Sequence record: OK272472.1
Length of the DNA stretch: 64,000 nt
DNA from: Escherichia phage JLBYU28
Direction: 5' to 3' (one strand)
Of the stretch, positions 1-15,020 are shown piece after piece (positions within the stretch are counted from its first letter, which is position 1; every line of letters begins with the position of its first letter). Below the pieces are notes generated by a model that saw only the letters and a list, made by a program, of their open reading frames with translations, had not been told where the DNA came from and did not search any database. The translations under genes and the position numbers were made by a program.

Positions 1-1722
1 ATTGAGTAAAATTTACGAAATTTATATTTTTTATAAAATTTTATCGGTTGTCCCAACCTCTTGGTCACCATCATATGTGAACAAAATATCTATCCTTCTT
101 AACAACCTTCTTAATCTTACTCTCTATATATAGTTATATAGTACTATATAGTATCTTAGTATCTATCTAGTGGTCTTAATAGCCCTCTGTATAACCCTTC
201 TAACAAGCCCTCTAACAAGCCTTCTTAATAACCTATACAATCACCTTAACCATCTCTCTATACCCTCTTAGAAGCTCCTATACACCTCTTAATCTCTAGG
301 TTATCTGCGTTACTTAACAGTAACCCATTAGGTTAGCTATGTTACCCTCTATAGGTGTTCACTAGGTATTACTAAGCCTCTATATAGACTGTTTTAACAA
401 ACTTAACAGGGATATCTTTACAGACCTTATCTCACAAGGTCTAACACGGTATTAACAAGGTATCTTATAAGCCTGTTTCTACCTGTATTTTTAAAAGACT
501 GTATAGGTAATTATTCAGAATTTTAAAATTTTTATAAAATAGGACTATCAAGTCATTTTTTAGGGTCTTTGAAGGAACTCAAAAATATCTGTAGAGTTGA
601 TTCGGTAGAATCTACCTCATGATGTATATCTGCTTGGTAGCCCTTAACAGCTCCTTAACACTCCCTTTGCAGAATTTTAAAATATCCTTAACAATCTCTT
701 AACAGTTACTACATCTTCTTAACATCTCTTCAGAGGTCTTAACAGTTTCTTAACAGAACTAACAAGGCTGTAATAGTTTCTTAACAGTTGATACATAGTC
801 TTTACAGAGGCTTAACAGATGACTAACAAAAGCTAACAGGGATTGGTAACAATACCAATTAGTTAATTTTAAAGAGTTATTTTGTTAAGATAATTAACAA
901 GCTTCTAACAAGTGTTTAACCTTTTTAACAAGCTATTAACATGGTCACTATCTCTGGTCTTATCGTTCCCTTCCTTTCTTAGTGATTCCTTAAACATACC
1001 TCTTAAAAACTCTCTATAGCTCTTTATAGGCTCTTTTAAGCCTCTTCCTAGTATTTACCCCTCAACTGTATGGATAGCTCTTTATAGGGCTTTACAGGGG
1101 CTTTTAAGGCTATGCCAAAGACTCTTACAAGGCTTTTACATGGTTGTAACAGAGGTTTAACAAGGGGCTAACAAGTTGCTAACAAGTGCCTTAAAAGCAT
1201 AACTATGTAGGGTTTGTTAAGAAAATGTTAAGAAAATGTTAAGGGGGCTAGCATTTACGTAACTTTTAAGCTACTTCAAAGTAACTTTAAAACCCCTATA
1301 ACATACTTTTAAGACACTAACAAGCCCTTTTTAGTAGTTCACAAGAATACTAACGAGATAATAAAGCTTACACCCTTATAAGATTCTTTTAAGGCTCTGG
1401 GAAGCTCTATAAAGGGCTTTTTAGAGTGGGTTAATATGATTGCTTAAGTTAGGTTGATAAGGCTGTTATAGAGCTTTATAGAGCGTTTTAGTGGTTGCCC
1501 TTCCCTTTCGGGTTATGGGCTTATATTTAAGTTGATTTGATAAGAGGTTATAGAGTAGACTATAGAGTTATTGCTTTTAAGGTATGAGATAGTCTCTATC
1601 GAATCAGTGGGATAGATTCTGGGAAGGAAAGGGATTGTATAGAGACTCTTTATAGACGTAAAAAAGCCCCTATGAGAAGGAGCTTTTAAGGTATCTGGGG
1701 CTATTTAGCCCCGTTGCGTCGA
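1..1722. repeat. ORF-free AT-rich region packed with short direct repeats (TAACA[A/G]G, CTTTATAG, CTTTTAAG words)
   Basis: No ORF >=60 aa on either strand in the track; >25 copies of the TAACA core counted by eye between ~100 and ~1330; tandem 11-mer GTTAAGAAAAT x2.3 at 1216-1247; palindrome ATTGGTA-ACAA-TACCAAT at 842-859. Confidence 0.7.
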
Positions 1723-1971
1723 TTAGTTGTAACCTTGTTTATTGTAGTACAGGGAGACAATCAAGTCACCCCAGTAATGGTAATGGTGTTCATCGTTTAA
1801 TGCCTCTTTTACAGCATCTTTCCAGAAGTCATCAGTAGGATTATAATCTGGAATGACTTGCTTGATAACTGTCTTCACTAATGAAAAACACTCGTCAGTC
1901 CCACCAATATCGAATTTAACGTCCAGAGTATAACAGCCATAAGCATTGATAGTTGCGCGGATAGTTGCCAT
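1723..1971 (-). CDS. hypothetical small early protein (82 aa)
   Basis: ORF with ATG start preceded by family-A cassette and AGGAG-like SD; no recognisable domain. Confidence 0.55.
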   Translation of the reverse strand: MATIRATINAYGCYTLDVKFDIGGTDECFSLVKTVIKQVIPDYNPTDDFWKDAVKEALNDEHHYHYWGDLIVSLYYNKQGYN

Positions 1972-2037
1972 TTTAGAATCTCCTAGTTTAAGGACTTTAC
2001 TTAGTGGGGAGGTTATCCCTCCCCGTTGATTAGTAAT
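1972..2037 (-). promoter_or_regulatory. family-A promoter/leader cassette copy 1 (-10-like TAAATT, GGGGAGG/CCTCCCC hairpin 2006-2024, SD)
   Basis: Near-identical ~65-nt intergenic element repeated 6 times; read on minus strand. Confidence 0.5.
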
Positions 2038-2301
2038 TTACTGCATGTTGTTGTAAGTTGCAAGCCTTTTTTTGTTGTATTTTGTCAGAATCTCGCAAGA
2101 TAAAACATCGTACTTTTTAACTGCGTTGCCTTTGTCGAGGTCAAAGAATCCGAATGTTTTACCGTCTTTGAATCCTACAACTTCGTAGGACTCTTTGATG
2201 ATTTCACCATTGAACAAATCGCTTTCGATACGGTGGAATAATGCTACGTCTTCTTTGTCGGTTGCAATTTGTAAAAGTGTGGTTAATTCTACGTTTTCCA
2301 T
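2038..2301 (-). CDS. hypothetical small early protein (87 aa)
   Basis: ORF behind family-A cassette; no recognisable domain. Confidence 0.55.
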   Translation of the reverse strand: MENVELTTLLQIATDKEDVALFHRIESDLFNGEIIKESYEVVGFKDGKTFGFFDLDKGNAVKKYDVLSCEILTKYNKKRLATYNNMQ

Positions 2302-2369
2302 CTTGATAACTCCTAGTTTAAGGACTTTACTTAGTGGGGAAGTTCATTCCCTCCCCGTTGATTGACAAT
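2302..2369 (-). promoter_or_regulatory. family-A cassette copy 2 (TTGACG-17-TAAATT on minus strand, hairpin, SD)
   Basis: Repeat of the 1972-2037 element. Confidence 0.5.
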
Positions 2370-2900
2370 TTACAGACTTTTAAGTGTCTCGTCAATATCT
2401 TTTTCAATATCTTTTAAAGTTTTTTCTAAGTTCTTGATATTGAAGGTTAAACCTTCTCCTAGAGTCTTAGAGTAAACAGTTGGGCGTAAGTCATGCAGTT
2501 TAATTTGTTCTACATCGAAGAGGCTAACTAACTCACCATTCACAGCATAAGCCATTGATACAGTATTTTCAGGGGCTTTATAAAACTTGTTGAGTGACTT
2601 GATAGAACGCTCGTAAGCCATTTTATAACCATTTAAAAGGTCTTTAACATGGTTACGGATATTTTTACACTCATCTAAGTAAATCTCTAAGAATAACGGT
2701 AATAACTCCGCTACAGCTTGCATAAAGTGAGAGACTACAACGGTTGCAACATTACGACGATGGATATAATAAGCCCCCTTTTCTGATTTAGTGATGGTTG
2801 CAAAGTGTACACCATTACAACGAAATTCGTAAGTGTCTTTGACAGGTTTAGACATAACACTATTTGAACGAATGTAGTTGATAGCTTTAAACTTGTTCAT
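2370..2900 (-). CDS. hypothetical early protein (176 aa)
   Basis: ORF behind family-A cassette. Confidence 0.55.
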   Translation of the reverse strand: MNKFKAINYIRSNSVMSKPVKDTYEFRCNGVHFATITKSEKGAYYIHRRNVATVVVSHFMQAVAELLPLFLEIYLDECKNIRNHVKDLLNGYKMAYERSIKSLNKFYKAPENTVSMAYAVNGELVSLFDVEQIKLHDLRPTVYSKTLGEGLTFNIKNLEKTLKDIEKDIDETLKSL

Positions 2901-2975
2901 TTTGACTCTCCTAGTTTAAGGACTTTACTTAGTGGGGAAGTTCATTCCCTCCCCGTTGATTAGTAATTTACTTGT
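2901..2975 (-). promoter_or_regulatory. family-A cassette copy 3 (TTGCAA-17-TAAATT, hairpin, SD)
   Basis: Repeat of the family-A element. Confidence 0.5.
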
Positions 2976-3122
2976 TTTGATAGCTGATTGCAAGCAATTT
3001 TTTAAGCTTATCTATAAAGAATCTTTTAAGTTAATCCCTTTTAGATAAACCCCCTCGAACAAAGTTACCAATGTCAAGAGGGATTGTCAACACTTTTTTA
3101 AAAGTTTTTTGTAAGTTATTGA

Positions 3123-3464
3123 TTAACTGATGAATATTTTTTCAGGCTTTACATAGCTGATACGCTGACTTTTTAGCAGGTCATCCCAGATTAGTGCGGC
3201 AATATGAGCATAACCGGATTCACGTAGAAGCTTCATTGCTTTACTTCTCGTTTCGAAGCGGCTTGCATAGTACTCACTGTTCAGAGTCGTTTTCTTCCCT
3301 TCATTGTCTACATGAATAATCTGCATTATTTGAAAGGGGCTTACATCCTCGCCTTTATTCCATTGCTCAAAGTATTTTAGGCACTGCATAGGTGACATCT
3401 TGTCGCTTACTTGAGTTGACCAAGATGAATCCGGTTTATTGGTAATTACAGTTACATAAGCCAT
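3123..3464 (-). CDS. hypothetical early protein (113 aa)
   Basis: ORF behind family-A cassette. Confidence 0.55.
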   Translation of the reverse strand: MAYVTVITNKPDSSWSTQVSDKMSPMQCLKYFEQWNKGEDVSPFQIMQIIHVDNEGKKTTLNSEYYASRFETRSKAMKLLRESGYAHIAALIWDDLLKSQRISYVKPEKIFIS

Positions 3465-3558
3465 TTTTTGAATCTCCTAGTTTAAGGGTTTATGTAGTGG
3501 GAGGTTGTTACCCCCCCCCCCCGTTGATTGACAATTTACAAACTTTTATCAGGCTTGT
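3465..3558 (-). promoter_or_regulatory. family-A cassette copy 4, containing a C12 homopolymer (3511-3522) in place of the usual CCTCCCC arm
   Basis: Repeat alignment by eye; TAGACA-17-TAAATT on minus strand. Confidence 0.5.
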
Positions 3559-3792
3559 CTAGTCTTTTTCTATGATAATTTCATATTGACCGTCAACGCT
3601 GTCAAAATAGATTCCGTCTTCATCTTCTGTCTTAAAGTAGCATTGAATGTCGTCACTGGCGGGGTAGTCTTGTCTTGCTATCTGGCACACCTGAATAGCA
3701 TTTTCTTTACTTCCTGTAAACTCTTCAAGCCCTTTAAAGTCGCATGAATGACCGTTACAGATAGAAAGGATGAGATAAATGGTTGTCAACAT
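3559..3792 (-). CDS. hypothetical small protein (77 aa) with hydrophobic N-terminus, possibly secreted
   Basis: ORF behind family-A cassette; N-terminal MLTTIYLILSIC. Confidence 0.5.
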   Translation of the reverse strand: MLTTIYLILSICNGHSCDFKGLEEFTGSKENAIQVCQIARQDYPASDDIQCYFKTEDEDGIYFDSVDGQYEIIIEKD

Positions 3793-3855
3793 GATTTAAG
3801 CCCTCTAAATGGCCCTGTACGGGCCTTAAGTTGGAAGTTGGTGTCTTTGTACTGA

Positions 3856-4419
3856 TTAACCTAAAAAGTCTTTTAAATTGCGTTCTGTGAGGTTTGCCGT
3901 GATTTTATCCAGTAGGTCGCAATACACAGAGCAATCCCCGCTATTCTGCACAATTTTCGCCATACTTAACAAATCTTCGTCAATATCTCCTAAATTACGG
4001 TTAGCTGTATCAGGTACAAAGAAAGGCGCATATATTGCACTAAATTTCGTCGAGTGAAGGCCAACAATCCAATCCTTATCAAAGTATCCGGTAAAACTGG
4101 CGATATCGCTCATGTTGTCACAAGAATAATCGTCCTCTAGCTCTTCCTCTGGGATATCCATTTCAATGACAATCACGTCCTGCGTTTCCATTTGGAAAGC
4201 TGCCGTAATAAGTCCAGACTCTAAAGCGTTTTGAATGCAGCGTTCACGGATATAAGAATCTTCCTCATCTTCCAGACATTCCGTTTTGATAACCTTGTTC
4301 ATTGGGTAAACGTAGAAACAATCGTCCATGTAGGAGCAGTTCCAGATTCCTTCCGGCTTGTCGCCACCATTCAGCAGGTTTACAAAGTTTTTGAGGGTAG
4401 TTCCGTGATAGCATTTCAT
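3856..4419 (-). CDS. hypothetical early protein (about 187 aa)
   Basis: Track ORF 3856..4434 starts at a TTG inside the family-B cassette; the ATG at 4417-4419 with GGAGAA SD is the likely start. Confidence 0.55.
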   Translation of the reverse strand: MKCYHGTTLKNFVNLLNGGDKPEGIWNCSYMDDCFYVYPMNKVIKTECLEDEEDSYIRERCIQNALESGLITAAFQMETQDVIVIEMDIPEEELEDDYSCDNMSDIASFTGYFDKDWIVGLHSTKFSAIYAPFFVPDTANRNLGDIDEDLLSMAKIVQNSGDCSVYCDLLDKITANLTERNLKDFLG

Positions 4420-4505
4420 TTTTAAGTTCTCCAATTTAGGATTTAGTGGTAAAGCTCTTTATCTGGGGCTTACTTTATCGAACTATAAGCCCCTTGTAAA
4501 GTACT
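4420..4505 (-). promoter_or_regulatory. family-B cassette copy 1 (TTTACA-17-TAAAGT on minus strand overlapped by inverted repeat GGGGCTTA/TAAGCCCC, then GGAGAA SD)
   Basis: ~85-nt element repeated 5 times nearly identically. Confidence 0.5.
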
Positions 4506-4709
4506 TTAACGATTATTTTTGACAACTTTTAAAACTGCAAGATAACCTAAGCGATAAGAATCACCGAAGAGAGTTCTACCCATGAAAGAATCCTCTTTGA
4601 TATCCTTTGCAGTGACAGTTTTTTCTACGCCGTGGAAAAGAACTATATCCCCAACTTTGATATCTTTGATGTGAGTAGTTTCAATGGTTAAACCGTTAAT
4701 AGTAGCCAT
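4506..4709 (-). CDS. hypothetical small protein (67 aa)
   Basis: ORF behind family-A cassette. Confidence 0.5.
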   Translation of the reverse strand: MATINGLTIETTHIKDIKVGDIVLFHGVEKTVTAKDIKEDSFMGRTLFGDSYRLGYLAVLKVVKNNR

Positions 4710-4808
4710 TTTAGAATCTCCTAGTTTAAGGACTTTATTTAGTAGGGAGGTTATTGCCTCCCCGTTGATGAGTAATTTAATCTATCTAAAAATCAGTGTC
4801 AACAGTTT
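4710..4808 (-). promoter_or_regulatory. family-A cassette copy 5 (TTGACA-17-TAAATT, hairpin, SD)
   Basis: Consensus -35 hexamer present on minus strand. Confidence 0.55.
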
Positions 4809-5213
4809 TTAGAGTTCTGCATAAATTGCATCACAGATATCACGAAAATCATGATTTGTCAAATTACGTTGTAACCAAGTGGCAAAGAAATCAGCGATTG
4901 CAAAATTGGCGTCATACTCGACGGATAGCCACACTTTCACGGCAAATCGAAACATTTTTAAATCAAGCTCTTTATTCATTATCTTTGATTTGCCTAACAT
5001 GTCAATCATTTCATATTGTGCGCCGTCTAGCGTGATACCTGCTGCAACGTCAGCCAGTGAGTTTTTTACGCTTTCAACGTCTAAGATAACACTTTGAATC
5101 TTCCCAATAATGTTGTCCAAAGTTTCATCCGGTGCAGATGATGTAATAACATTAATCCGGTTAACGGTCAAACGTGCTTTTAATATTGATAATTCACGGT
5201 TATTAATAGTCAT
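4809..5213 (-). CDS. hypothetical early protein (about 134 aa)
   Basis: Track ORF 4809..5228 starts at a TTG inside the cassette; ATG at 5211-5213 is the likely start. Confidence 0.55.
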   Translation of the reverse strand: MTINNRELSILKARLTVNRINVITSSAPDETLDNIIGKIQSVILDVESVKNSLADVAAGITLDGAQYEMIDMLGKSKIMNKELDLKMFRFAVKVWLSVEYDANFAIADFFATWLQRNLTNHDFRDICDAIYAEL

Positions 5214-5299
5214 TTTTAAGTTCTCCAATTTAGGATTTAGTGGTAAAGCTCTTTATCTGGGGCTTACTTTATCGAACTATAAGCCCCTTGTAAAGTACT
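5214..5299 (-). promoter_or_regulatory. family-B cassette copy 2
   Basis: Identical to 4420-4505 over ~80 nt. Confidence 0.5.
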
Positions 5300-5572
5300 T
5301 TATACTAAATGCAGTTTTTTACCTTTTACCATGATGTAACTCGATGCACTATTGCTTTGCACATCCTGATAAATTCTGCGCAAACGGCCTTTGTAGTGTA
5401 CTTTCCAACTAGTTGGAATCTTTTTACCGTATCCGGTAGCAGTTTTTTGGAGTCCTGCGACTTGCCAATCTAAGATGTGTTGCTCAGCTTGTAAATCTTC
5501 AAAGTGCATGACACCGCCTACATAGTGACGTAGTGTGACATTTAAGGTACGACCGTTGTTAGTAGTATACAT
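5300..5572 (-). CDS. hypothetical small protein (90 aa)
   Basis: ORF behind family-A cassette. Confidence 0.5.
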   Translation of the reverse strand: MYTTNNGRTLNVTLRHYVGGVMHFEDLQAEQHILDWQVAGLQKTATGYGKKIPTSWKVHYKGRLRRIYQDVQSNSASSYIMVKGKKLHLV

Positions 5573-5662
5573 TTTTAGAATCTCCTAGTTTAAGGACTTT
5601 ATTTAGTGGGAAGGTCATTCCCTCCCCGTTGATGTGTAATTTAATCTATCTAAAAACCAGTG
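5573..5662 (-). promoter_or_regulatory. family-A cassette copy 6 (TTGACA-17-TAAATT, hairpin, SD)
   Basis: Repeat alignment by eye. Confidence 0.55.
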
Positions 5663-5995
5663 TCAAACACTTTGTTTTCGTTTGCTCAATTCTTGAACAA
5701 TTACAGCGTGATAGTCTTTTAAGTCGCTGATATTTAAAGCATTTATCAGAGAATTATAATCATCAACTAACTGAAAATCGTCTTTGAAAATGTCGCTAAT
5801 CTGATAAGTTCTTGCCCGAAATCTGAAGCTCATCTCTAGCCGCTTTAATTGCTCATCACTTAAACGCTCTAGAAAGCTCATTACAAGGTTATTGCTGACC
5901 TGTTGTGTGATTACCTTACTTGCTAGATTATAGGCGCTGTACGCCTTATATAGCGCCATAATAGCGATAATTGCAGTGATGCCTATCATTAGCAT
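5663..5995 (-). CDS. hypothetical protein (110 aa) with N-terminal transmembrane segment
   Basis: Hydrophobic N-terminus MLMIGITAIIAIMALY. Confidence 0.5.
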   Translation of the reverse strand: MLMIGITAIIAIMALYKAYSAYNLASKVITQQVSNNLVMSFLERLSDEQLKRLEMSFRFRARTYQISDIFKDDFQLVDDYNSLINALNISDLKDYHAVIVQELSKRKQSV

Positions 5996-6285
5996 GGTGC
6001 TTCCTCTTTACGTGACACTTTGCCATTTACAGTTATCTCATAAGATTCTAATAAGTCACTTTTAGACTTTACTGGACTTTTAAAAGTATCATCATAAACA
6101 TTAATTTGCAATACAGGTTTTTTATACTCCCTGCAACTATTCCATAAGCAAATCACTACACGACGGCCATTTATTTTCCCGTGTAACCATTCCATAACCT
6201 CATGAGTATTTCTTGATGTTTCAATAAAATCAATTTTGTTGAGTAATTTGCTAAGGTTTTCCCTAACTTTATTTGATAATTTCAT
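5989..6285 (-). CDS. hypothetical small protein (98 aa)
   Basis: ORF behind family-B cassette. Confidence 0.5.
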   Translation of the reverse strand: MKLSNKVRENLSKLLNKIDFIETSRNTHEVMEWLHGKINGRRVVICLWNSCREYKKPVLQINVYDDTFKSPVKSKSDLLESYEITVNGKVSRKEEAPC

Positions 6286-6373
6286 TTTTGAATCTCCAGT
6301 TTAGGATTGAGTGGTAAAACTCTTTATCTGGGGCTTAAGGTATCAGCTTTTAAGCCCCTTGTAAAGTACTTTA
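6286..6373 (-). promoter_or_regulatory. family-B cassette copy 3 (diverged loop)
   Basis: Repeat alignment by eye. Confidence 0.45.
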
Positions 6374-6664
6374 TTACTTAATTTTCAGCTTTGCATAACT
6401 TCTCATTGTACGAATGGGGGATGTTAATGCTACGCGTCTAATGTATGCCTTTTTCGTGTATACATTTGTCTTCCCGATAGTGTTTACACATGTAAAAAGG
6501 TTTATCGGTGAATTTTTTAACTTCAACTGTTTATCAACCTTCACGCCCCACCTTACAGCAGATTGTTTTCCATTGTCAACCACTTTCCCGCATAACTTTT
6601 TAGCCATAACGCGAGCGTCATCACGAGTCTTTGCAGTAATTACAACGTTTTTAATAATAGCCAT
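6374..6664 (-). CDS. hypothetical basic small protein (96 aa)
   Basis: ORF behind family-B cassette. Confidence 0.5.
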   Translation of the reverse strand: MAIIKNVVITAKTRDDARVMAKKLCGKVVDNGKQSAVRWGVKVDKQLKLKNSPINLFTCVNTIGKTNVYTKKAYIRRVALTSPIRTMRSYAKLKIK

Positions 6665-6752
6665 CTTTGAATCTCCAATTTAGGATTGAGTGGTAAAGCT
6701 CTTTATCTGGGGCTTACTTTATCGAACTATAAGCCCCTTGTAAAGTACTTTA
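6665..6752 (-). promoter_or_regulatory. family-B cassette copy 4
   Basis: Repeat alignment by eye. Confidence 0.5.
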
Positions 6753-7133
6753 TCAGTTAATTTTGAAGATAGTTACATAACCATCGCTACCAATGATTTG
6801 CGACACTCCCGCTTTTTCTACTGAATAGCCCATATTTTCAAGATGATAAACAGCATCATCATAACCATATGCGCCACCCTGATAACGTCTTTTGTCGCAG
6901 CTTATCAGTTTTTTCCCACGTCCTGCAAGTGCATTCAGTACAGCTTTTTCACTTGATAGCGTACCATCTAACATGGTTGCCGTGTAATGGTTGATTCTGT
7001 TCCCGTTAATATCATACTTAAAATTGAATGCGTGAACAACGATAATGTTACCTTTAAAATTTTCATCAAGTGACTTCTCCAGTGCGTTGCGAAAGTTGTC
7101 TTTGTTGATGAATTTAGGTGCACGATATGCCAT
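6753..7133 (-). CDS. hypothetical protein (126 aa)
   Basis: ORF behind family-B cassette. Confidence 0.5.
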   Translation of the reverse strand: MAYRAPKFINKDNFRNALEKSLDENFKGNIIVVHAFNFKYDINGNRINHYTATMLDGTLSSEKAVLNALAGRGKKLISCDKRRYQGGAYGYDDAVYHLENMGYSVEKAGVSQIIGSDGYVTIFKIN

Positions 7134-7222
7134 TTTTGAATCTCCTAGTTTAAGGTTAGCTAATAAAACTCTTTATCTGGGGCTTACTTTATCGAACTAT
7201 AAGCCCCTTGTAAAGTACTTTA
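7134..7222 (-). promoter_or_regulatory. family-B cassette copy 5
   Basis: Repeat alignment by eye. Confidence 0.5.
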
Positions 7223-7429
7223 TTAGATATCGTAGTAATAAACTGCTGTCTGTCTTATGTGCTTTCTTGTATTTCTTGTAAGGTAGCAATTAGAATTAAT
7301 AGCCGTCTCTACATAGTTGCAGTAGTCAGCTTCTGATATTCTGGACCATGCGCCACATACTTGCATGTAAAAACGTTTTACCTTTGTGTTAACGTTAGTT
7401 GTAACCATCAATTCACGACTATAAAGCAT
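7223..7429 (-). CDS. hypothetical small protein (68 aa), first gene of the early array
   Basis: ORF; upstream on minus strand is TTGACT-17-TAATAT (about 7475-7503). Confidence 0.5.
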   Translation of the reverse strand: MLYSRELMVTTNVNTKVKRFYMQVCGAWSRISEADYCNYVETAINSNCYLTRNTRKHIRQTAVYYYDI

Positions 7430-7659
7430 TTTCGATTCTCCAGTTTAGGCAGTGGGCTTGCTTGCCCGTCTGATGCAAATATTAGATAACCATACTCAAA
7501 GAGTCAATAGGAATTTTAAAAATATTTTTGGCAAAAATGTAATGAAACGGGTGCGCGCGACTACCACAAAACAGAACTACAATCAAGAATTATTTTTCAA
7601 TCCGCTACAAATTTTTCTGTTGACTTTTATTTCCAGATGTGGTAGCCTTGTGAGAAATG

Positions 7660-7870
7660 GCGACATCCCCACCTGCACCCACCTACCTGCACAATTCTAA
7701 AATGATTTTTCTTGCCCGACCTGAGCGGGGTCTGCACGTTTTGAAAATGAAAAAGCTCTTTGGAGATTACCTGCACAGTTTGAAAATGAATTTTCTCTTT
7801 GGAGTTCAAAATTTTCTCTACAGATTTCTGTCCAGAACTCTACCTGCACAATCCTGAAATGAAAAAGCCC
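7660..7870. repeat. array of 4-5 degenerate direct repeats, consensus about CCTGCACA-N6-GAAAATGAA
   Basis: Repeat units begin near 7686, 7732, 7770, 7842; the track ORFs across this stretch owe their recurring LHxxKM peptides to the DNA repeat. Confidence 0.55.
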
Positions 7871-7935
7871 TCCTTACCTGAAAAATTTACCAGATAAGAA
7901 AGGCTTAGTCTATTGTGAATATTCTACAGAGTTTC

Positions 7936-8721
7936 TTAGTTCTTTGCGTCTAAGAAGGTAACTTCCGGTGAAGAGAAGACCGTCTCGATATCCTCATCAG
8001 TTCTTGCATAGATATATGTATCTGCATCACTGCCAAATGTTACGGCTATCCTGTGATTGCTCTTCGACAGGTGGGTAACTAGAGCGTTACTCAGAGACAT
8101 CTTCTCAACCGGAGGGTTACTTTGATGTATCTTACCTTTTCTTCGTCTGAAGAGGGTAACTGTATCATCTGTGAACACAACTACACCTGCAAAGTATTCT
8201 GGTTCACAGTAGTTCTTCCAACCTGAGCGTAACTTGTGGTACATCTCTCCTTCATAGACATACAGATACACATCTACACTCTTCATCACCTGATTGATGA
8301 TAACTGTGACGGCTTGAGGGTCCAACCCACCAATACCTGCACCAATCATAGGTAACCCAACTTTCTTCAACTGATTGACTTCACAGTATCTGTTAAGCTG
8401 TTTCAAAGATGATTCTAAAGCACTGTATCGGGCATCTTTACCAGTCTTAAGCTGAGTGTAAAGATTAGCTATACGGCCTTGTTCTAAACGTGCTACAGAG
8501 AAATTGCCTAGTAAATTCTCACAGGGTTTGTGGCCTATACCACCTGCATACAGATAAACTTCTGTATCGGTCTCATATGCTTTTGGGTAAAGTTTAGAAA
8601 TCTTGTCAGCGATACCTGCACCCATTAAATTCATACAGTTGCAACCGTGACCAATAATATCAAACTTACCTTTATCAAATGCGGAGAAGATACCCCCATT
8701 GATGATTTTTACAATACCCAT
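7936..8721 (-). CDS. macro-domain protein (TARG1/Poa1-like ADP-ribose-processing domain) with C-terminal domain of unknown function
   Basis: N-terminal motifs IIGHGCNCMNLMGAGIA and PMIGAGIGGLDP match the macro-domain glycine-rich ADP-ribose binding loops. Confidence 0.6.
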   Translation of the reverse strand: MGIVKIINGGIFSAFDKGKFDIIGHGCNCMNLMGAGIADKISKLYPKAYETDTEVYLYAGGIGHKPCENLLGNFSVARLEQGRIANLYTQLKTGKDARYSALESSLKQLNRYCEVNQLKKVGLPMIGAGIGGLDPQAVTVIINQVMKSVDVYLYVYEGEMYHKLRSGWKNYCEPEYFAGVVVFTDDTVTLFRRRKGKIHQSNPPVEKMSLSNALVTHLSKSNHRIAVTFGSDADTYIYARTDEDIETVFSSPEVTFLDAKN

Positions 8722-8958
8722 TTAGCATCTCTCCCAAGATTCTTTATCTTCTGAAGGTTTTACACGCTGTCCTTCATGGTCTACCCAGATACATCCACAA
8801 CCTTCACAGATTACTGGTATTGCATAACCAGCTTTAAAGTCTTCTTCAGTGATGAGACCTTTTAAGTCACCTGTATCACGTCCGAACATTTCGATAGCAC
8901 AATCTTTGCAGAAATCAGCCATGAATAATTGCCTCTTGAATGATGATGCCTTCGCCAC
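8722..8958 (-). CDS. cysteine-rich small protein, possible zinc ribbon
   Basis: CKDC ... CEGCGC pattern. Confidence 0.45.
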   Translation of the reverse strand: MAKASSFKRQLFMADFCKDCAIEMFGRDTGDLKGLITEEDFKAGYAIPVICEGCGCIWVDHEGQRVKPSEDKESWERC

Positions 8959-9148
8959 AGCGACTTTTGAAATCTTCTAATGGTTCAGAGATGAAGCCAC
9001 GTAAACGGTCACTGAATTTACGTTTTAAACCCTTCTTATAAGTTAGCACATCTTCCCCTGCAAACGGTACGACTTCATCTCTCCCTATGAATACTGCTGA
9101 ACGTACAATCTTACGGGTCTTTTTATCTCTGGCTAGTATTACTTTCAT
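8915..9148 (-). CDS. hypothetical small protein (77 aa; start uncertain)
   Basis: ORF in track; overlaps neighbour by ~40 nt. Confidence 0.35.
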   Translation of the reverse strand: MKVILARDKKTRKIVRSAVFIGRDEVVPFAGEDVLTYKKGLKRKFSDRLRGFISEPLEDFKSRCGEGIIIQEAIIHG

Positions 9149-9449
9149 AGTTTACCTTCTCAGTTAGCTCATATAAATCAACATGCTCAATACTATCAAT
9201 GTTGATATCAATCTTTTTGAAGCGTTCTATCACTTCATTGTCAGTCATCCATATCAGACACCAATGATTCTGAATGGATTCTTCAAGAAGGTCAACACAA
9301 TCTTTAAAAGTTTTTGTATCACTTCTTGTTCCAACTACTGCGATTGTTCCATATAGCCACTTACCATTGCCATAAGACACTTGTGCTACGCCAACTTCTT
9401 TATCTTTCTCGTAGTAAACGGCTACAAATTCTCTTCCGTTAATCTGCAT
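9123..9449 (-). CDS. hypothetical protein (108 aa)
   Basis: ORF in track. Confidence 0.45.
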   Translation of the reverse strand: MQINGREFVAVYYEKDKEVGVAQVSYGNGKWLYGTIAVVGTRSDTKTFKDCVDLLEESIQNHWCLIWMTDNEVIERFKKIDINIDSIEHVDLYELTEKVNYESNTSQR

Positions 9450-9451
9450 AG

Positions 9452-9721
9452 TTACTTCCTCGTTTTGAGAACTGCTAAGATTTCTTTAGAGTCTGGTAAG
9501 AACCATGTGTAGTGATTCTCTTTGATTTCTGGATGAGTGTCAACCTTTATTTTGCAGTCTTTACCGACATGCTTAAGCTGTGCTGTGACACCCTGCATAA
9601 AGATATGACACATCACATTATCCATAATGGTTGGTATGAAGTCAATTCGCATATAAGTTTCTTTTGGTCGCGGTAACAGTAAGTGCCCTTCTACGTAAAA
9701 AGTATCTTCATTCTCTGTCAT
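9452..9721 (-). CDS. hypothetical protein (89 aa)
   Basis: ORF in track. Confidence 0.45.
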   Translation of the reverse strand: MTENEDTFYVEGHLLLPRPKETYMRIDFIPTIMDNVMCHIFMQGVTAQLKHVGKDCKIKVDTHPEIKENHYTWFLPDSKEILAVLKTRK

Positions 9722-9987
9722 TGCTGCTTATTTCCTAATAAAATCATGTCAATAAGGTTATTAGCTTTAATTGTACACTGGTAAAAGCCGTCACGGTAGA
9801 ACTCAAGTGCTGCTGCTACATCACTGCCTGTGTTGCCTTTGATGATATACCGTGATTCTTCTTGAGTGTACTTATCACTCTCACTTACTTGGGAGTTTTT
9901 GAATGTACTGTTCACTTTGTTCGTTGAACACCCTGACATAATTATCAGTAACACAAACATTATAAAACTCTGGCTTAGTTTTTTCAT
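9718..9987 (-). CDS. lipoprotein, putative o-spanin (Rz1-like)
   Basis: Signal peptide with lipobox-like IIMSGC; start lies inside the 3' end of the upstream membrane-protein gene. Confidence 0.4.
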   Translation of the reverse strand: MKKLSQSFIMFVLLIIMSGCSTNKVNSTFKNSQVSESDKYTQEESRYIIKGNTGSDVAAALEFYRDGFYQCTIKANNLIDMILLGNKQQ

Positions 9988-10228
9988 ATGTTAGTACCTC
10001 TTTTGTGTGCTTATTCTTAGCAAGCACATCTTTCAAATCATTTTTGTAATTGGTGCTCAGTGTGACTAAACCTTCCTGATAAGCATCTTTAGCAACACTT
10101 ATTAGTTTCTCATTATTTAGCTCAGCTTCAGCAACTTGATAGTCTCTGTAAGAGTATCCTCCCCAGACACCTGCTCCAACTAAGAAAACAATTATGAAAG
10201 TAGCTTGACAAAACTCTTTAAATGTCAT
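9881..10228 (-). CDS. type II membrane protein, putative i-spanin (Rz-like)
   Basis: N-terminal TM helix FIIVFLVGAGVWGG then predicted helical periplasmic part; overlaps lipoprotein gene by 107 nt. Confidence 0.4.
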   Translation of the reverse strand: MTFKEFCQATFIIVFLVGAGVWGGYSYRDYQVAEAELNNEKLISVAKDAYQEGLVTLSTNYKNDLKDVLAKNKHTKEVLTYEKTKPEFYNVCVTDNYVRVFNEQSEQYIQKLPSK

Positions 10229-14941: not shown

Positions 14942-15020
14942 CTTATTACTCTCTCTTGTTAGTTAATAAATCATTTTGTAAGGCTATTCTAAGGGGCTTC
15001 AAAGCCCCTTGTCAAACACT

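Follow-up and report, generated by a model that had tools for sequence, protein, structure and literature searches.

Composite promoter-like and stem-loop cassettes and their recombination footprint in an accessory-gene cluster of Felix O1-like phages

The Locus

The stretch of Escherichia phage JLBYU28 analyzed here (record OK272472.1; 64,000 nucleotides, henceforth the window) carries on its minus strand a cluster of small genes fronted by reiterated composite cassettes. The window belongs to a Felixounavirus, that is, a Felix O1-like myovirus of the Ounavirinae: a megablast search with positions 1700–7700 recovered 253 phage records, with top matches at ~90% identity and the Escherichia/Salmonella/Shigella Felixounavirus CL1, C600M2, Shy and AYO145A as the best. 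Positions 1655–7507 (minus strand) are a hyperplastic accessory-gene region of Felixounavirus, in which nearly every small ORFan has its own regulatory cassette of ~100 nucleotides (nt). Its counterparts are the open reading frames (ORFs) 15–23 of Felix O1 and genes 14–27 of wV8, annotated as hypothetical throughout. The cluster is flanked on one side by a Macro-domain “phosphatase” gene at 7936–8721 (Pfam Macro) and on the other by ~1.7 kb of non-coding DNA (1–1700).

By repeat finding, motif scans and alignments, we identified six family-A and five family-B cassettes of ~95–105 nt, all on the minus strand within 1970–7230, and a third variant, X, as a twelfth cassette (Table 1). A motif scan found no occurrence of the signature motifs of A and B elsewhere in the 64-kb window; the cassettes are confined to one 5.5-kb cluster and all share one orientation. 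The same six and five copies had been counted in a preliminary description of the window, which gave two B copies as identical over ~80 nt; B1 and B2 are in fact 100% identical over 93 nt. That description also placed fourteen genes between 1972 and 7460, each behind one of two cassettes. Fourteen minus-strand ORFs are indeed present, within 1723–7429, and 12 of them have a cassette: 11 have A or B, one has X, and ORFs 3559–3792 and 5663–5995 have neither. The X promoter (7507–7479) lies just beyond the end of the span first described. Outside the cluster, at ~15001–15015 (minus strand), TTGACAAGGGGCTTT matches the family-B 5′ part TTTACAAGGGGCTTA with two mismatches and may be an unrelated promoter or hairpin.

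Table 1. Features of the cluster in the order in which the minus strand is read (all on the minus strand; positions are those of the window; aa, amino acids).
Feature	Coordinates	Description
Intrinsic terminator after Macro-domain gene	7865..7906	Identical sequence listed as Felix O1 terminator t13
Cassette X, first of cluster	7430..7507	TTGACT 7507-7502, 17 nt, TAATAT 7484-7479; hairpin GGGC-aagcaa-GCCC; B-like leader CCTAAACTGGAG, GGAG 7441-7438, ATG 7429
ORF, 68 aa	7223..7429	phrog_5293; absent from AYO145A, wV8, Mushroom, radambza, VpaE1; behind X
Cassette B5	7131..7230	TTTACA 7214-7209, TAAAGT 7191-7186, stem GGGGCTTA/TAAGCCCC, A-type leader TTAAACTAGGAG
ORF, 126 aa	6753..7133	phrog_4495; absent from Felix O1
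Cassette B4	6662..6760	TTTACA 6744-6739, TAAAGT 6721-6716
ORF, 96 aa	6374..6664	phrog_5089; absent from Felix O1 and radambza
Cassette B3	6283..6381	TTTACA 6365-6360, −10 TACCTT 6342-6337, 9-bp stem
ORF, 98 aa	5989..6285	phrog_4401
ORF, 110 aa	5663..5995	phrog_4375; without own cassette; 7-nt overlap with preceding ORF
Cassette A6	5573..5674	TTGACA 5666-5661 (upstream TGA stop inside), TAAATT 5643-5638, hairpin GGGGAGG/CCTTCCC
ORF, 90 aa	5300..5572	phrog_3436
Cassette B2	5214..5307	TTTACA 5294-5289, TAAAGT 5271-5266
ORF, 134 aa from true ATG	4809..5213	phrog_4327; program TTG start at 5228 spurious
Cassette A5	4708..4810	TTGACA 4802-4797, TAAATT 4779-4774, hairpin GGGGAGG/CCTCCCT
ORF, 67 aa	4506..4709	phrog_3623; absent from Felix O1
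Cassette B1	4420..4515	TTTACA 4500-4495, TAAAGT 4477-4472
ORF, 187 aa from true ATG	3856..4419	phrog_3303; N-terminus MKCYHGT; homologue of Bas63 gp107
Stem-loop, promoterless, ahead of ORF 3559-3792	3811..3825	GGCCC-gtaca-GGGCC; equivalent wV8 site annotated terminator
ORF, 77 aa	3559..3792	phrog_4640; no A or B cassette, only stem-loop 3811-3825
Cassette A4, degenerate	3465..3570	TAGACA 3561-3556 (upstream TAG stop inside), TAAATT 3538-3533
ORF, 113 aa	3123..3464	phrog_4318
Cassette A3	2900..3002	TTGCAA 2993-2988, TAAATT 2970-2965
ORF, 176 aa	2370..2900	phrog_4725
Cassette A2	2300..2404	TTGACG 2395-2390, TAAATT 2372-2367 (upstream TAA stop inside)
ORF, 87 aa	2038..2301	phrog_7022; absent from Felix O1, PK6, dune, Mushroom, radambza, REP5, VpaE1
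Cassette A1	1970..2072	TTGCAA 2063-2058, TAAATT 2040-2035 (upstream TAA stop inside), perfect 7-bp hairpin
ORF, 82 aa, last gene of cluster	1723..1971	phrog_4559
Cluster end	1655..1716	Cassette remnant CAAC-GGGGCTAAATAGCCCC-AGATA (1716-1692), then hairpin and T-run

Anatomy of the Cassettes

The cassettes are built in one order: the stop codon of the upstream gene lies in the cassette or directly next to it, and there follow a −35-like hexamer, a spacer, a TAnnnT −10 hexamer, a GC-rich hairpin, a leader with GGAG, and the ATG. In all 12, exactly 17 nt separate the hexamers and GGAG stands 7–9 nt before the ATG (per-gene table). For family A, alignment bears out the arrangement described earlier: −35-like TTGACA, TTGCAA, TTGACG or TAGACA, 17 nt, TAAATT, the hairpin GGGGAGG.../...CCTCCCC, AGGAG and ATG. 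A-tracts lie upstream of its −35, and the hairpin starts ~10 nt past the −10, i.e., ~3–5 nt past the predicted start site; the latter distance applies to X as well. Family B reads TTTACA, 17 nt, TAAAGT, the inverted repeat GGGGCTTA/TAAGCCCC, GGAG and ATG, with the 8–9-bp stem of this repeat covering the spacer and the −10. Here the first account holds for TTTACA, the spacing and the inverted repeat over the −10, and needs amendment in two details: B3 has TACCTT in place of TAAAGT, and the Shine–Dalgarno variant GGAGAA is found in B1 and B2 only, with GGAGAT in the other B copies.

The upstream stop codon is built into the cassette in several ways. It lies inside the −10 (TAAATT) of A1 and A2, inside the −35 of A6 (tTGAca) and A4 (TAGaca), inside the 12-bp perfect palindrome TAAAGTACTTTA that opens B1 and B2, and immediately before TAAAGTACTTTA in B3–B5. 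At the opposite end, the leader CCT(T)AAACT(A)GGAGATTCNAAAATG is common to A, B and X. The family-B repeat had been thought to run into the first codons and so to give two unrelated proteins a shared MENLKM N-terminus; this proved to be an artefact of ORF calling. When the leader TTGGAGAACTTAAAA is translated from a TTG overlapping the Shine–Dalgarno sequence (TTG GAG AAC TTA AAA ATG), it yields MENLK. The real start is the ATG 8–9 nt after GGAG, where the repeat stops, and the relatives are annotated from this ATG rather than from the TTG. Folding further predicts a small conserved hairpin in the leader (A: UCCU...AGGA; B: UCC...GGA; e.g., 5582–5595 and 4429–4440, minus strand), which has just 3–4 bp and would pair part of the Shine–Dalgarno sequence, whose fixed letters leave no room for covariation.

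Individual copies depart from the common plan. In A4, a run of 12 G (minus strand) at 3511–3522, unique among the loci compared below, replaces the GGGGAGGG hairpin arm and destabilizes the predicted hairpin, leaving the centroid structure unfolded; it could reflect slippage, or a sequencing or assembly artefact. A3 is preceded by a 222-nt spacer with a further promoter-like site starting at 3090, and AYO145A has a promoter annotated at the equivalent place. The hairpin variant of X recurs at two A-type positions in phage SUSP2. With a generic pattern defined after the cassettes had been seen (six −35 variants, 17 nt, TAnnnT), we counted 2.7 matches per kb on the minus strand of the cluster versus 0.15 per kb per strand in the rest of the window.

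Conservation of the Cassettes and Their Promoter-Like Hexamers

We compared the window with 16 related loci (17 loci in all) and catalogued their cassettes with nhmmer. These number 7–13 per Felixounavirus locus, 10 in SUSP2, 7 in Moogle and 4 in the Erwinia phage Coenus (B only, partial). Queries of single cassettes with blastn found family B in 287 phage records (1357 places) and family A in 246 records (1298 places). Both families occur in Felixounavirus, Suspvirus and Mooglevirus, and B also in the Erwinia Kolesnikvirus phages; apart from a few oddly labelled records, all matches are Ounavirinae. The cassette positions are conserved across the four genera. Scanning IMG/VR with a family-B 15-mer gave multi-copy matches mostly on contigs of 80–90 kb, with two on shorter ones, and the single matches elsewhere are probably due to chance.

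The hexamers show a distinctive pattern of constraint. Among 41 distinct B promoter–hairpin segments from the four genera, CTTTACA is invariant. In the −10 of these copies the opening T and A are likewise invariant and the last T is at least 90% conserved, with the middle bases varying freely (AAG, TCT, AGA, TGA, GTA, CCA, CAG and TAG). The first T, the A and the last T are the positions that matter most in a sigma-70 −10 element. Further, the conserved T and A sit in the loop of the B hairpin; hence, the stem does not explain their conservation. In family A, the upstream halves of the cassettes differ by position yet keep a −35-like hexamer 17 nt from TAAATT. The putative promoters of the cassettes, first proposed in the preliminary description, draw their support solely from this conservation of hexamers across genera at a fixed distance of 17 nt.

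Multi-copy, palindrome-bearing repeats restricted to intergenic DNA might also be selfish elements, that is, small non-autonomous mobile repeats of the REP or MITE kind that spread in intergenic DNA and play no part in expression. We consider such an origin extremely improbable: the copies have a single orientation, overlap the upstream stop codon and end, in every case, precisely at a Shine–Dalgarno sequence and ATG, and they occupy one 5.5-kb cluster at positions conserved across four genera. Nor were target-site duplications or terminal inverted repeats seen in the cassette alignments, which did not constitute a systematic search for them.

The Hairpins

The hairpins of the two families differ in their predicted RNA folding. 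The A hairpins have energies of about −13 to −16 kcal/mol (hairpin core), and the 5′ untranslated regions (UTRs) of the genes they precede would begin with the stem. Pair-by-pair counts anchored on the alignment are noisy in this family, given register slips between the G-run and the C-run, and each copy was folded individually instead. Of the 58 distinct copies, 44 form a more stable fold as mRNA than as the antisense strand, and G·U pairs number 36 versus 11 on the respective strands. This asymmetry in the modelled folds points to a role at the RNA level. In family B, 96.9% of the stem cells are paired, GC is changed to UA in all four Erwinia-phage copies, and the pair 13–34 appears as CG, UG and UA. 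The outer B stem shows G–C to U–A covariation, with 14 GC and 5 UA types versus 4 unpaired. A transcript from the B promoter itself is predicted to be unstructured (−2.7 kcal/mol, z about 0); for read-through RNA, folding predicts a composite stem of 6+5+9 bp (−24.2 kcal/mol, z = −4.6) that spans from the stop codon to about +10. Transcripts that start at the B promoter would not include the B hairpin, which lies before the predicted start; only RNA reading through from upstream could form it. The sequence of a cassette hairpin can change while its position and flanks stay, as with GGGC/GCCC in X and SUSP2 and GGGGTAAGCAAGCCCC in Moogle. Lineage-specific stem variants, e.g., GGTG/CACC in the Erwinia phages, are common to all copies within a genome.

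We also considered the cassette hairpins as intrinsic (Rho-independent) terminators and rejected this: past the stem the sequence continues with ACTAAGTAAAG in A and AGATAAAGAG in B rather than with a U-tract, and no cassette gave a match in the terminator scan. Searches of Rfam yielded no match at E ≤ 1 in positions 1–10000 of the window.

These folding properties bear on a rather unlikely alternative, in which the cassettes are signals for RNA processing or stability within one long early transcript from the X promoter (7507) or from further upstream. The hairpins would then be cut or bound, for instance by RNase III at the ~20-bp B stem, or protect 3′ ends, and the hexamers would be weak or incidental. 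Some covariation in the outer stem agrees with this, as do the moderate match of the hexamers to the consensus, the gene that has a stem-loop and no promoter (3811–3825) and the two intrinsic terminators that bound the cluster like a single operon. RNase III sites of the T7 early-mRNA type are irregular double-stranded stems of ~20 bp between the cistrons of a polycistronic RNA; the predicted B read-through stem, with limited covariation in its outer part, may or may not be of this type. What such a model leaves unexplained is the pattern of constraint in the hexamers: the invariance of CTTTACA and of the −10 T, A and T at a fixed 17 nt, with the other −10 bases free and the conserved T and A in the loop, is the expectation for a promoter and not for a stem, and family A keeps its −35-like hexamers in otherwise unrelated upstream sequence. 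The two roles are, moreover, compatible.

Less probable still is that the inverted repeats are DNA operators, through which a phage-encoded dimeric regulator would switch all cassette promoters off or on at the early-to-middle transition. The geometry of family B is suggestive in this regard: its inverted repeat (8-bp arms, 13-bp spacer) lies exactly over the promoter spacer and −10, shows no strand asymmetry in folding energy, and is accompanied by the 12-bp palindrome TAAAGTACTTTA overlapping the −35 in five of five copies. Expression in Felix O1 is also temporally regulated by a mechanism that is not known. However, the A stems tolerate G·U pairs on the mRNA strand, register slips and variable loops, which befits RNA rather than a site for a DNA-binding dimer. 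Further, stem sequences differ among A, B and X and show compensatory change between genera, and the cluster ORFs matched no Pfam family, DNA-binding or other.

The Recombination Footprint

The gene-order map of the 17 loci shows ~9 gene-unit polymorphisms, in which a gene together with its cassette is present or absent. The variable units include the 68-, 126-, 96- and 87-aa genes of the window and a 170-aa gene that is missing from it; at the B3 site, most relatives have two B cassettes flanking this extra gene. Among the relatives, a 52-aa gene is present in Shy, PK6 and MET-P1-301 and an 82-aa gene in wV8 only, Felix O1 is without a three-gene block, Mushroom is without the last gene, and the Erwinia phage has shared genes in a different order. 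The polymorphisms concentrate where neighbouring cassettes belong to the same family, namely in the B-B-B and A-A-A-A runs.

The junctions of these changes lie in the cassettes. All blastn breakpoints against the window do so (7427/7152, 6280/6375, 5569/5604, 4704/3516, 3462/3484, 2310/2041, 2353/1716 and 6662/6385). When 14 Felixounavirus loci were compared in all pairs, cassettes, which make up 20.6% of the cluster, contained 723 of the 796 indel endpoints (91%); the remainder are mostly within a few nt of a cassette or in the X element, which was unannotated in the endpoint analysis. At 158 of 188 junctions (84%) the homologous alignments overlap by 20 nt or more (median 56 nt), with the single cassette of the shorter genome aligning to both flanking cassettes of the longer one. 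This shared homology argues for homologous exchange between direct repeats and not merely for selection in favour of intergenic junctions. The swapping of small genes as modules, for which the preliminary description had called for comparative genomics, is well supported by gene-plus-cassette units that come and go at junctions with overlapping homology.

Exchange has also affected parts of cassettes. Leader types have been exchanged between A and B copies, and phages without the 68-aa gene have the X promoter fused to an A hairpin. B1 equals B2 in the window though the equivalent positions differ in other phages, and the B1 leader was apparently converted to the B2 type. Judging by their sequences, the cassettes are homogenized within genomes.

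The long shared homology at the junctions argues for homologous rather than site-specific recombination, and within the cluster the array does not fit an integron, with its site-specific tyrosine recombinase, folded single-stranded attC sites and gene cassettes: a Pfam screen, which covered the cluster ORFs only, gave no match. A more far-reaching version of the recombination model can still be framed. In it, the conserved hairpins would be extruded in single-stranded or supercoiled DNA and targeted by a phage structure-specific nuclease or recombination protein, and the cluster would form an integron-like array for capture and expression, with promoter, hairpin and leader sub-modules exchanged independently and evolving in concert across Ounavirinae. 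We hold this extension to be speculative and improbable. If true, it would make this kind of organization general to the early accessory regions of virulent myoviruses and not specific to T4.

Comparison with Known Systems

The closest parallel, which the preliminary description did not draw, is with the promoter-early stem-loop (PeSL) cassettes of the T4-type phages RB49/phi1, T4/PST and KVP40/nt-1 (Arbiol et al. 2010, PMC2839356; Comeau et al. 2014, PMC4122927). For PeSLs, promoter and terminator/attenuator activity has been shown, as has the formation of mini-circles by recombination between them; both studies treat T4-like phages only (PMC2839356, PMC4122927). The likeness begins with the unit itself: ~70–100 nt of intergenic DNA comprising the upstream stop, an AT-rich stretch, a sigma-70-like −35, N17 and −10, a stem-loop of a G-run and a C-run, a Shine–Dalgarno sequence and ATG, with the stem-loop between the boxes, over the −10 or just past it. 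In both systems the units cluster in hyperplastic regions ahead of ORFans, and indel junctions between close relatives lie within them. The TTTACA...TAnnnT of family B also resembles the T4/PST consensus TTTACW-N17-TAYWAT. The cassettes described here accordingly have the sequence hallmarks of a PeSL (the stop-to-ATG unit, promoter, stem-loop, hyperplastic ORFan region and junctions), the promoter being recognized at the level of sequence.

There are also differences. The host phages are Ounavirinae and not T4-like, which reflects where PeSLs have been described rather than mechanism, and the cassette sequences themselves are unrelated. Whereas T4-type genomes have many diverse PeSLs in several regions, here two or three highly homogenized families occupy a single 5.5-kb cluster. 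Activity and mini-circles are experimental findings for the T4-type cassettes and putative for the present ones. The lambdoid morons are likewise autonomous small expression units with accessory genes, but no conserved repeats flank them, and they are believed to have inserted illegitimately (PMC2839356).

At the RNA level, the A and X hairpins, positioned within a few nt of a 5′ end (here only a predicted one), are reminiscent of the ompA 5′ UTR. The latter is reportedly a 5′-terminal stem-loop that stabilizes mRNA (attributed to Emory, Bouvet and Belasco, 1992).

The repeats themselves have been recorded before. The Felix O1 genome paper lists, without interpretation, a 57-bp repeat CTTTACATGGGGCTTAAAAG..., which is family B, and a 39-bp repeat TTGACACTGGTTTTTAGATAGATTAAATTACACATCAAC, which is the promoter part of family A, and states that the organization around terminators and the temporal control of transcription were not understood. 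In the GenBank record of wV8 they appear as DR_1 to DR_9; the wV8 paper is silent on them. Single copies are marked in AYO145A (one family-A promoter, by pattern) and XTG1 (one terminator), and no promoter features are annotated for the cluster in the GenBank record of phiEa21-4. Our literature searches found no paper that applies the PeSL concept to Felix O1-like phages. To judge from these searches, the repeats had previously only been listed or annotated as direct repeats, or marked singly as a promoter or terminator.

A Model for the Cluster and Its Implications

Taken together, we think it likely that these are PeSL-type promoter and stem-loop cassettes, which provide each gene with its own promoter for the host polymerase and its own ribosome-binding site and which, as repeats, serve as substrates for homologous recombination; promoter activity, start sites, early timing and hairpin function are the parts of this model that we infer. 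Host RNA polymerase would start at each cassette, and each gene would be expressed individually early in infection. The A or X hairpin would form the 5′-terminal stem-loop of the gene's own mRNA and stabilize it, and in read-through RNA it could also serve as a 3′ structure of the upstream message. The composite ~20-bp B stem of read-through RNA might act as an attenuator, a 3′ stabilizer or a processing site. Since direct repeats of ~100 nt flank each gene, recombination between cassettes would delete, insert or transfer gene-plus-cassette units, and gene conversion would homogenize the cassettes.

Semi-quantitative reverse-transcription PCR in Felix O1 has placed the maximum of ORFs 13, 16, 20, 21 and 22 at 5 min and that of ORFs 17, 19 and 23 at 25 min. 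ORFs 16, 20, 21 and 22 belong to the homologous cluster and lend partial support to the early timing proposed in the preliminary description. Separate time classes for A and B were considered and rejected, as genes with a 5-min peak in Felix O1 stand behind cassettes of either family.

Several points weigh against this model. Three Felix O1 genes behind cassettes (ORFs 17, 19 and 23) peak at 25 min and not at 5 min, and early expression is to that extent a partial description. Matches to the sigma-70 consensus are moderate, at 8–10 of 12 positions, with the −10 matching at only 4 of 6. Folding energies reveal no strand asymmetry for the B hairpin, and both the covariation and the strand-asymmetry statistics overstate the number of independent events because the copies are related by descent and gene conversion. 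Lacking a U-tract, the hairpins are not canonical intrinsic terminators. The enrichment of endpoints between genes is partly expected from selection against gene disruption, given that intergenic DNA and cassette DNA nearly coincide here. Finally, the searchable literature yielded no transcript 5′-end, reporter or RNA-seq data for Ounavirinae, and no transcriptome or start-site map for this subfamily or Felix O1.

The model would extend the PeSL idea to a second, only distantly related group of phages (shared rII, pseT and tk.4-type genes), which points to a shared means by which virulent phages reshuffle ORFans and leave neighbouring genes undisturbed. It provides a testable map of the accessory-gene cluster in the Felix O1-like phages, a group widely used for typing and therapy. 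For the engineering of Felixounavirus such as Bas63, the cassettes would offer sites where insertions are naturally tolerated and a promoter and ribosome-binding site are already in place, and the units they bound form a shortlist of dispensable, host-adaptive genes for anti-defence or host-takeover screens.

The Genes of the Cluster

None of the 14 ORFs matched Pfam at E ≤ 0.05, and PHROGs places all 14 proteins in families of unknown function. For ORF 5663–5995, which has no cassette, the overlap with the preceding ORF suggests translational coupling. The protein of ORF 3856–4419 shows weak fold matches suggestive of an ADP-ribosyltransferase/Tpt1-like fold; a Foldseek search against PDB found no significant match, and a profile search of PDB sequences returned a chance match only. 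Its homologue, Bas63 gp107, is encoded in the same cluster (bas63_0098 to 0111). A 2024 preprint describes gp107 as slightly like the NAD-binding domain of RNA 2′-phosphotransferase and as conditionally more essential on E. coli S17-1; this Tpt1-like note agrees with the weak fold matches. The picture fits the cluster ORFs being conditionally useful accessory genes; the anti-defence or host-takeover roles suggested in the preliminary description are conjectural. In the equivalent cluster of phiEa21-4, the 77-aa gene gp23 (9942–10175) is annotated as “immunity to superinfection”, which hints at the kind of function that such clusters carry.

The Boundaries and the Flanking Non-Coding DNA

Transcription of the cluster is bounded upstream by the terminator that follows the Macro-domain gene. 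At the other end, the remnant at 1692–1716 (minus strand) consists of an A-type 5′ flank joined to a B-type 3′ flank, without promoter or leader, and a deletion of the last two genes in phage Mushroom ends at it. AYO145A has an annotated terminator at this place, and the terminators listed for Felix O1 include t23 at the homologous position, after ORF23.

Between the Macro-gene terminator and the first cassette promoter lies a non-coding spacer of ~500 nt (7510–7930, minus strand), with four copies of TTTTCATTTTcAAAnTGTGCAGGTA at 7688–7705, 7733–7750, 7772–7789 and 7845–7862, spaced 39–84 nt apart and often with CTCCAAAGAG just before. The motif is absent from the rest of the 64 kb. The spacer is kept in Felixounavirus, Suspvirus and Mooglevirus, and an Erwinia phage has the form TTTTCATTTTGAATTTGTGCATAG in three copies. 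We considered TTTTCATTTTcAAAnTGTGCAGGTA as a sigma-70 promoter, which it does not resemble; regulator binding sites, iterons or small RNAs are possibilities for the array.

The non-coding DNA at 1–1700 contains 16 of the 43 CTTAACA heptamers of the window, arranged in several short arrays with an 11-bp period that places them on one face of the helix. The GenBank records of the relatives mio, dune and MET-P1-301 begin within the equivalent region, which may lie near the genome terminus or a terminal repeat, or include an origin or packaging site.

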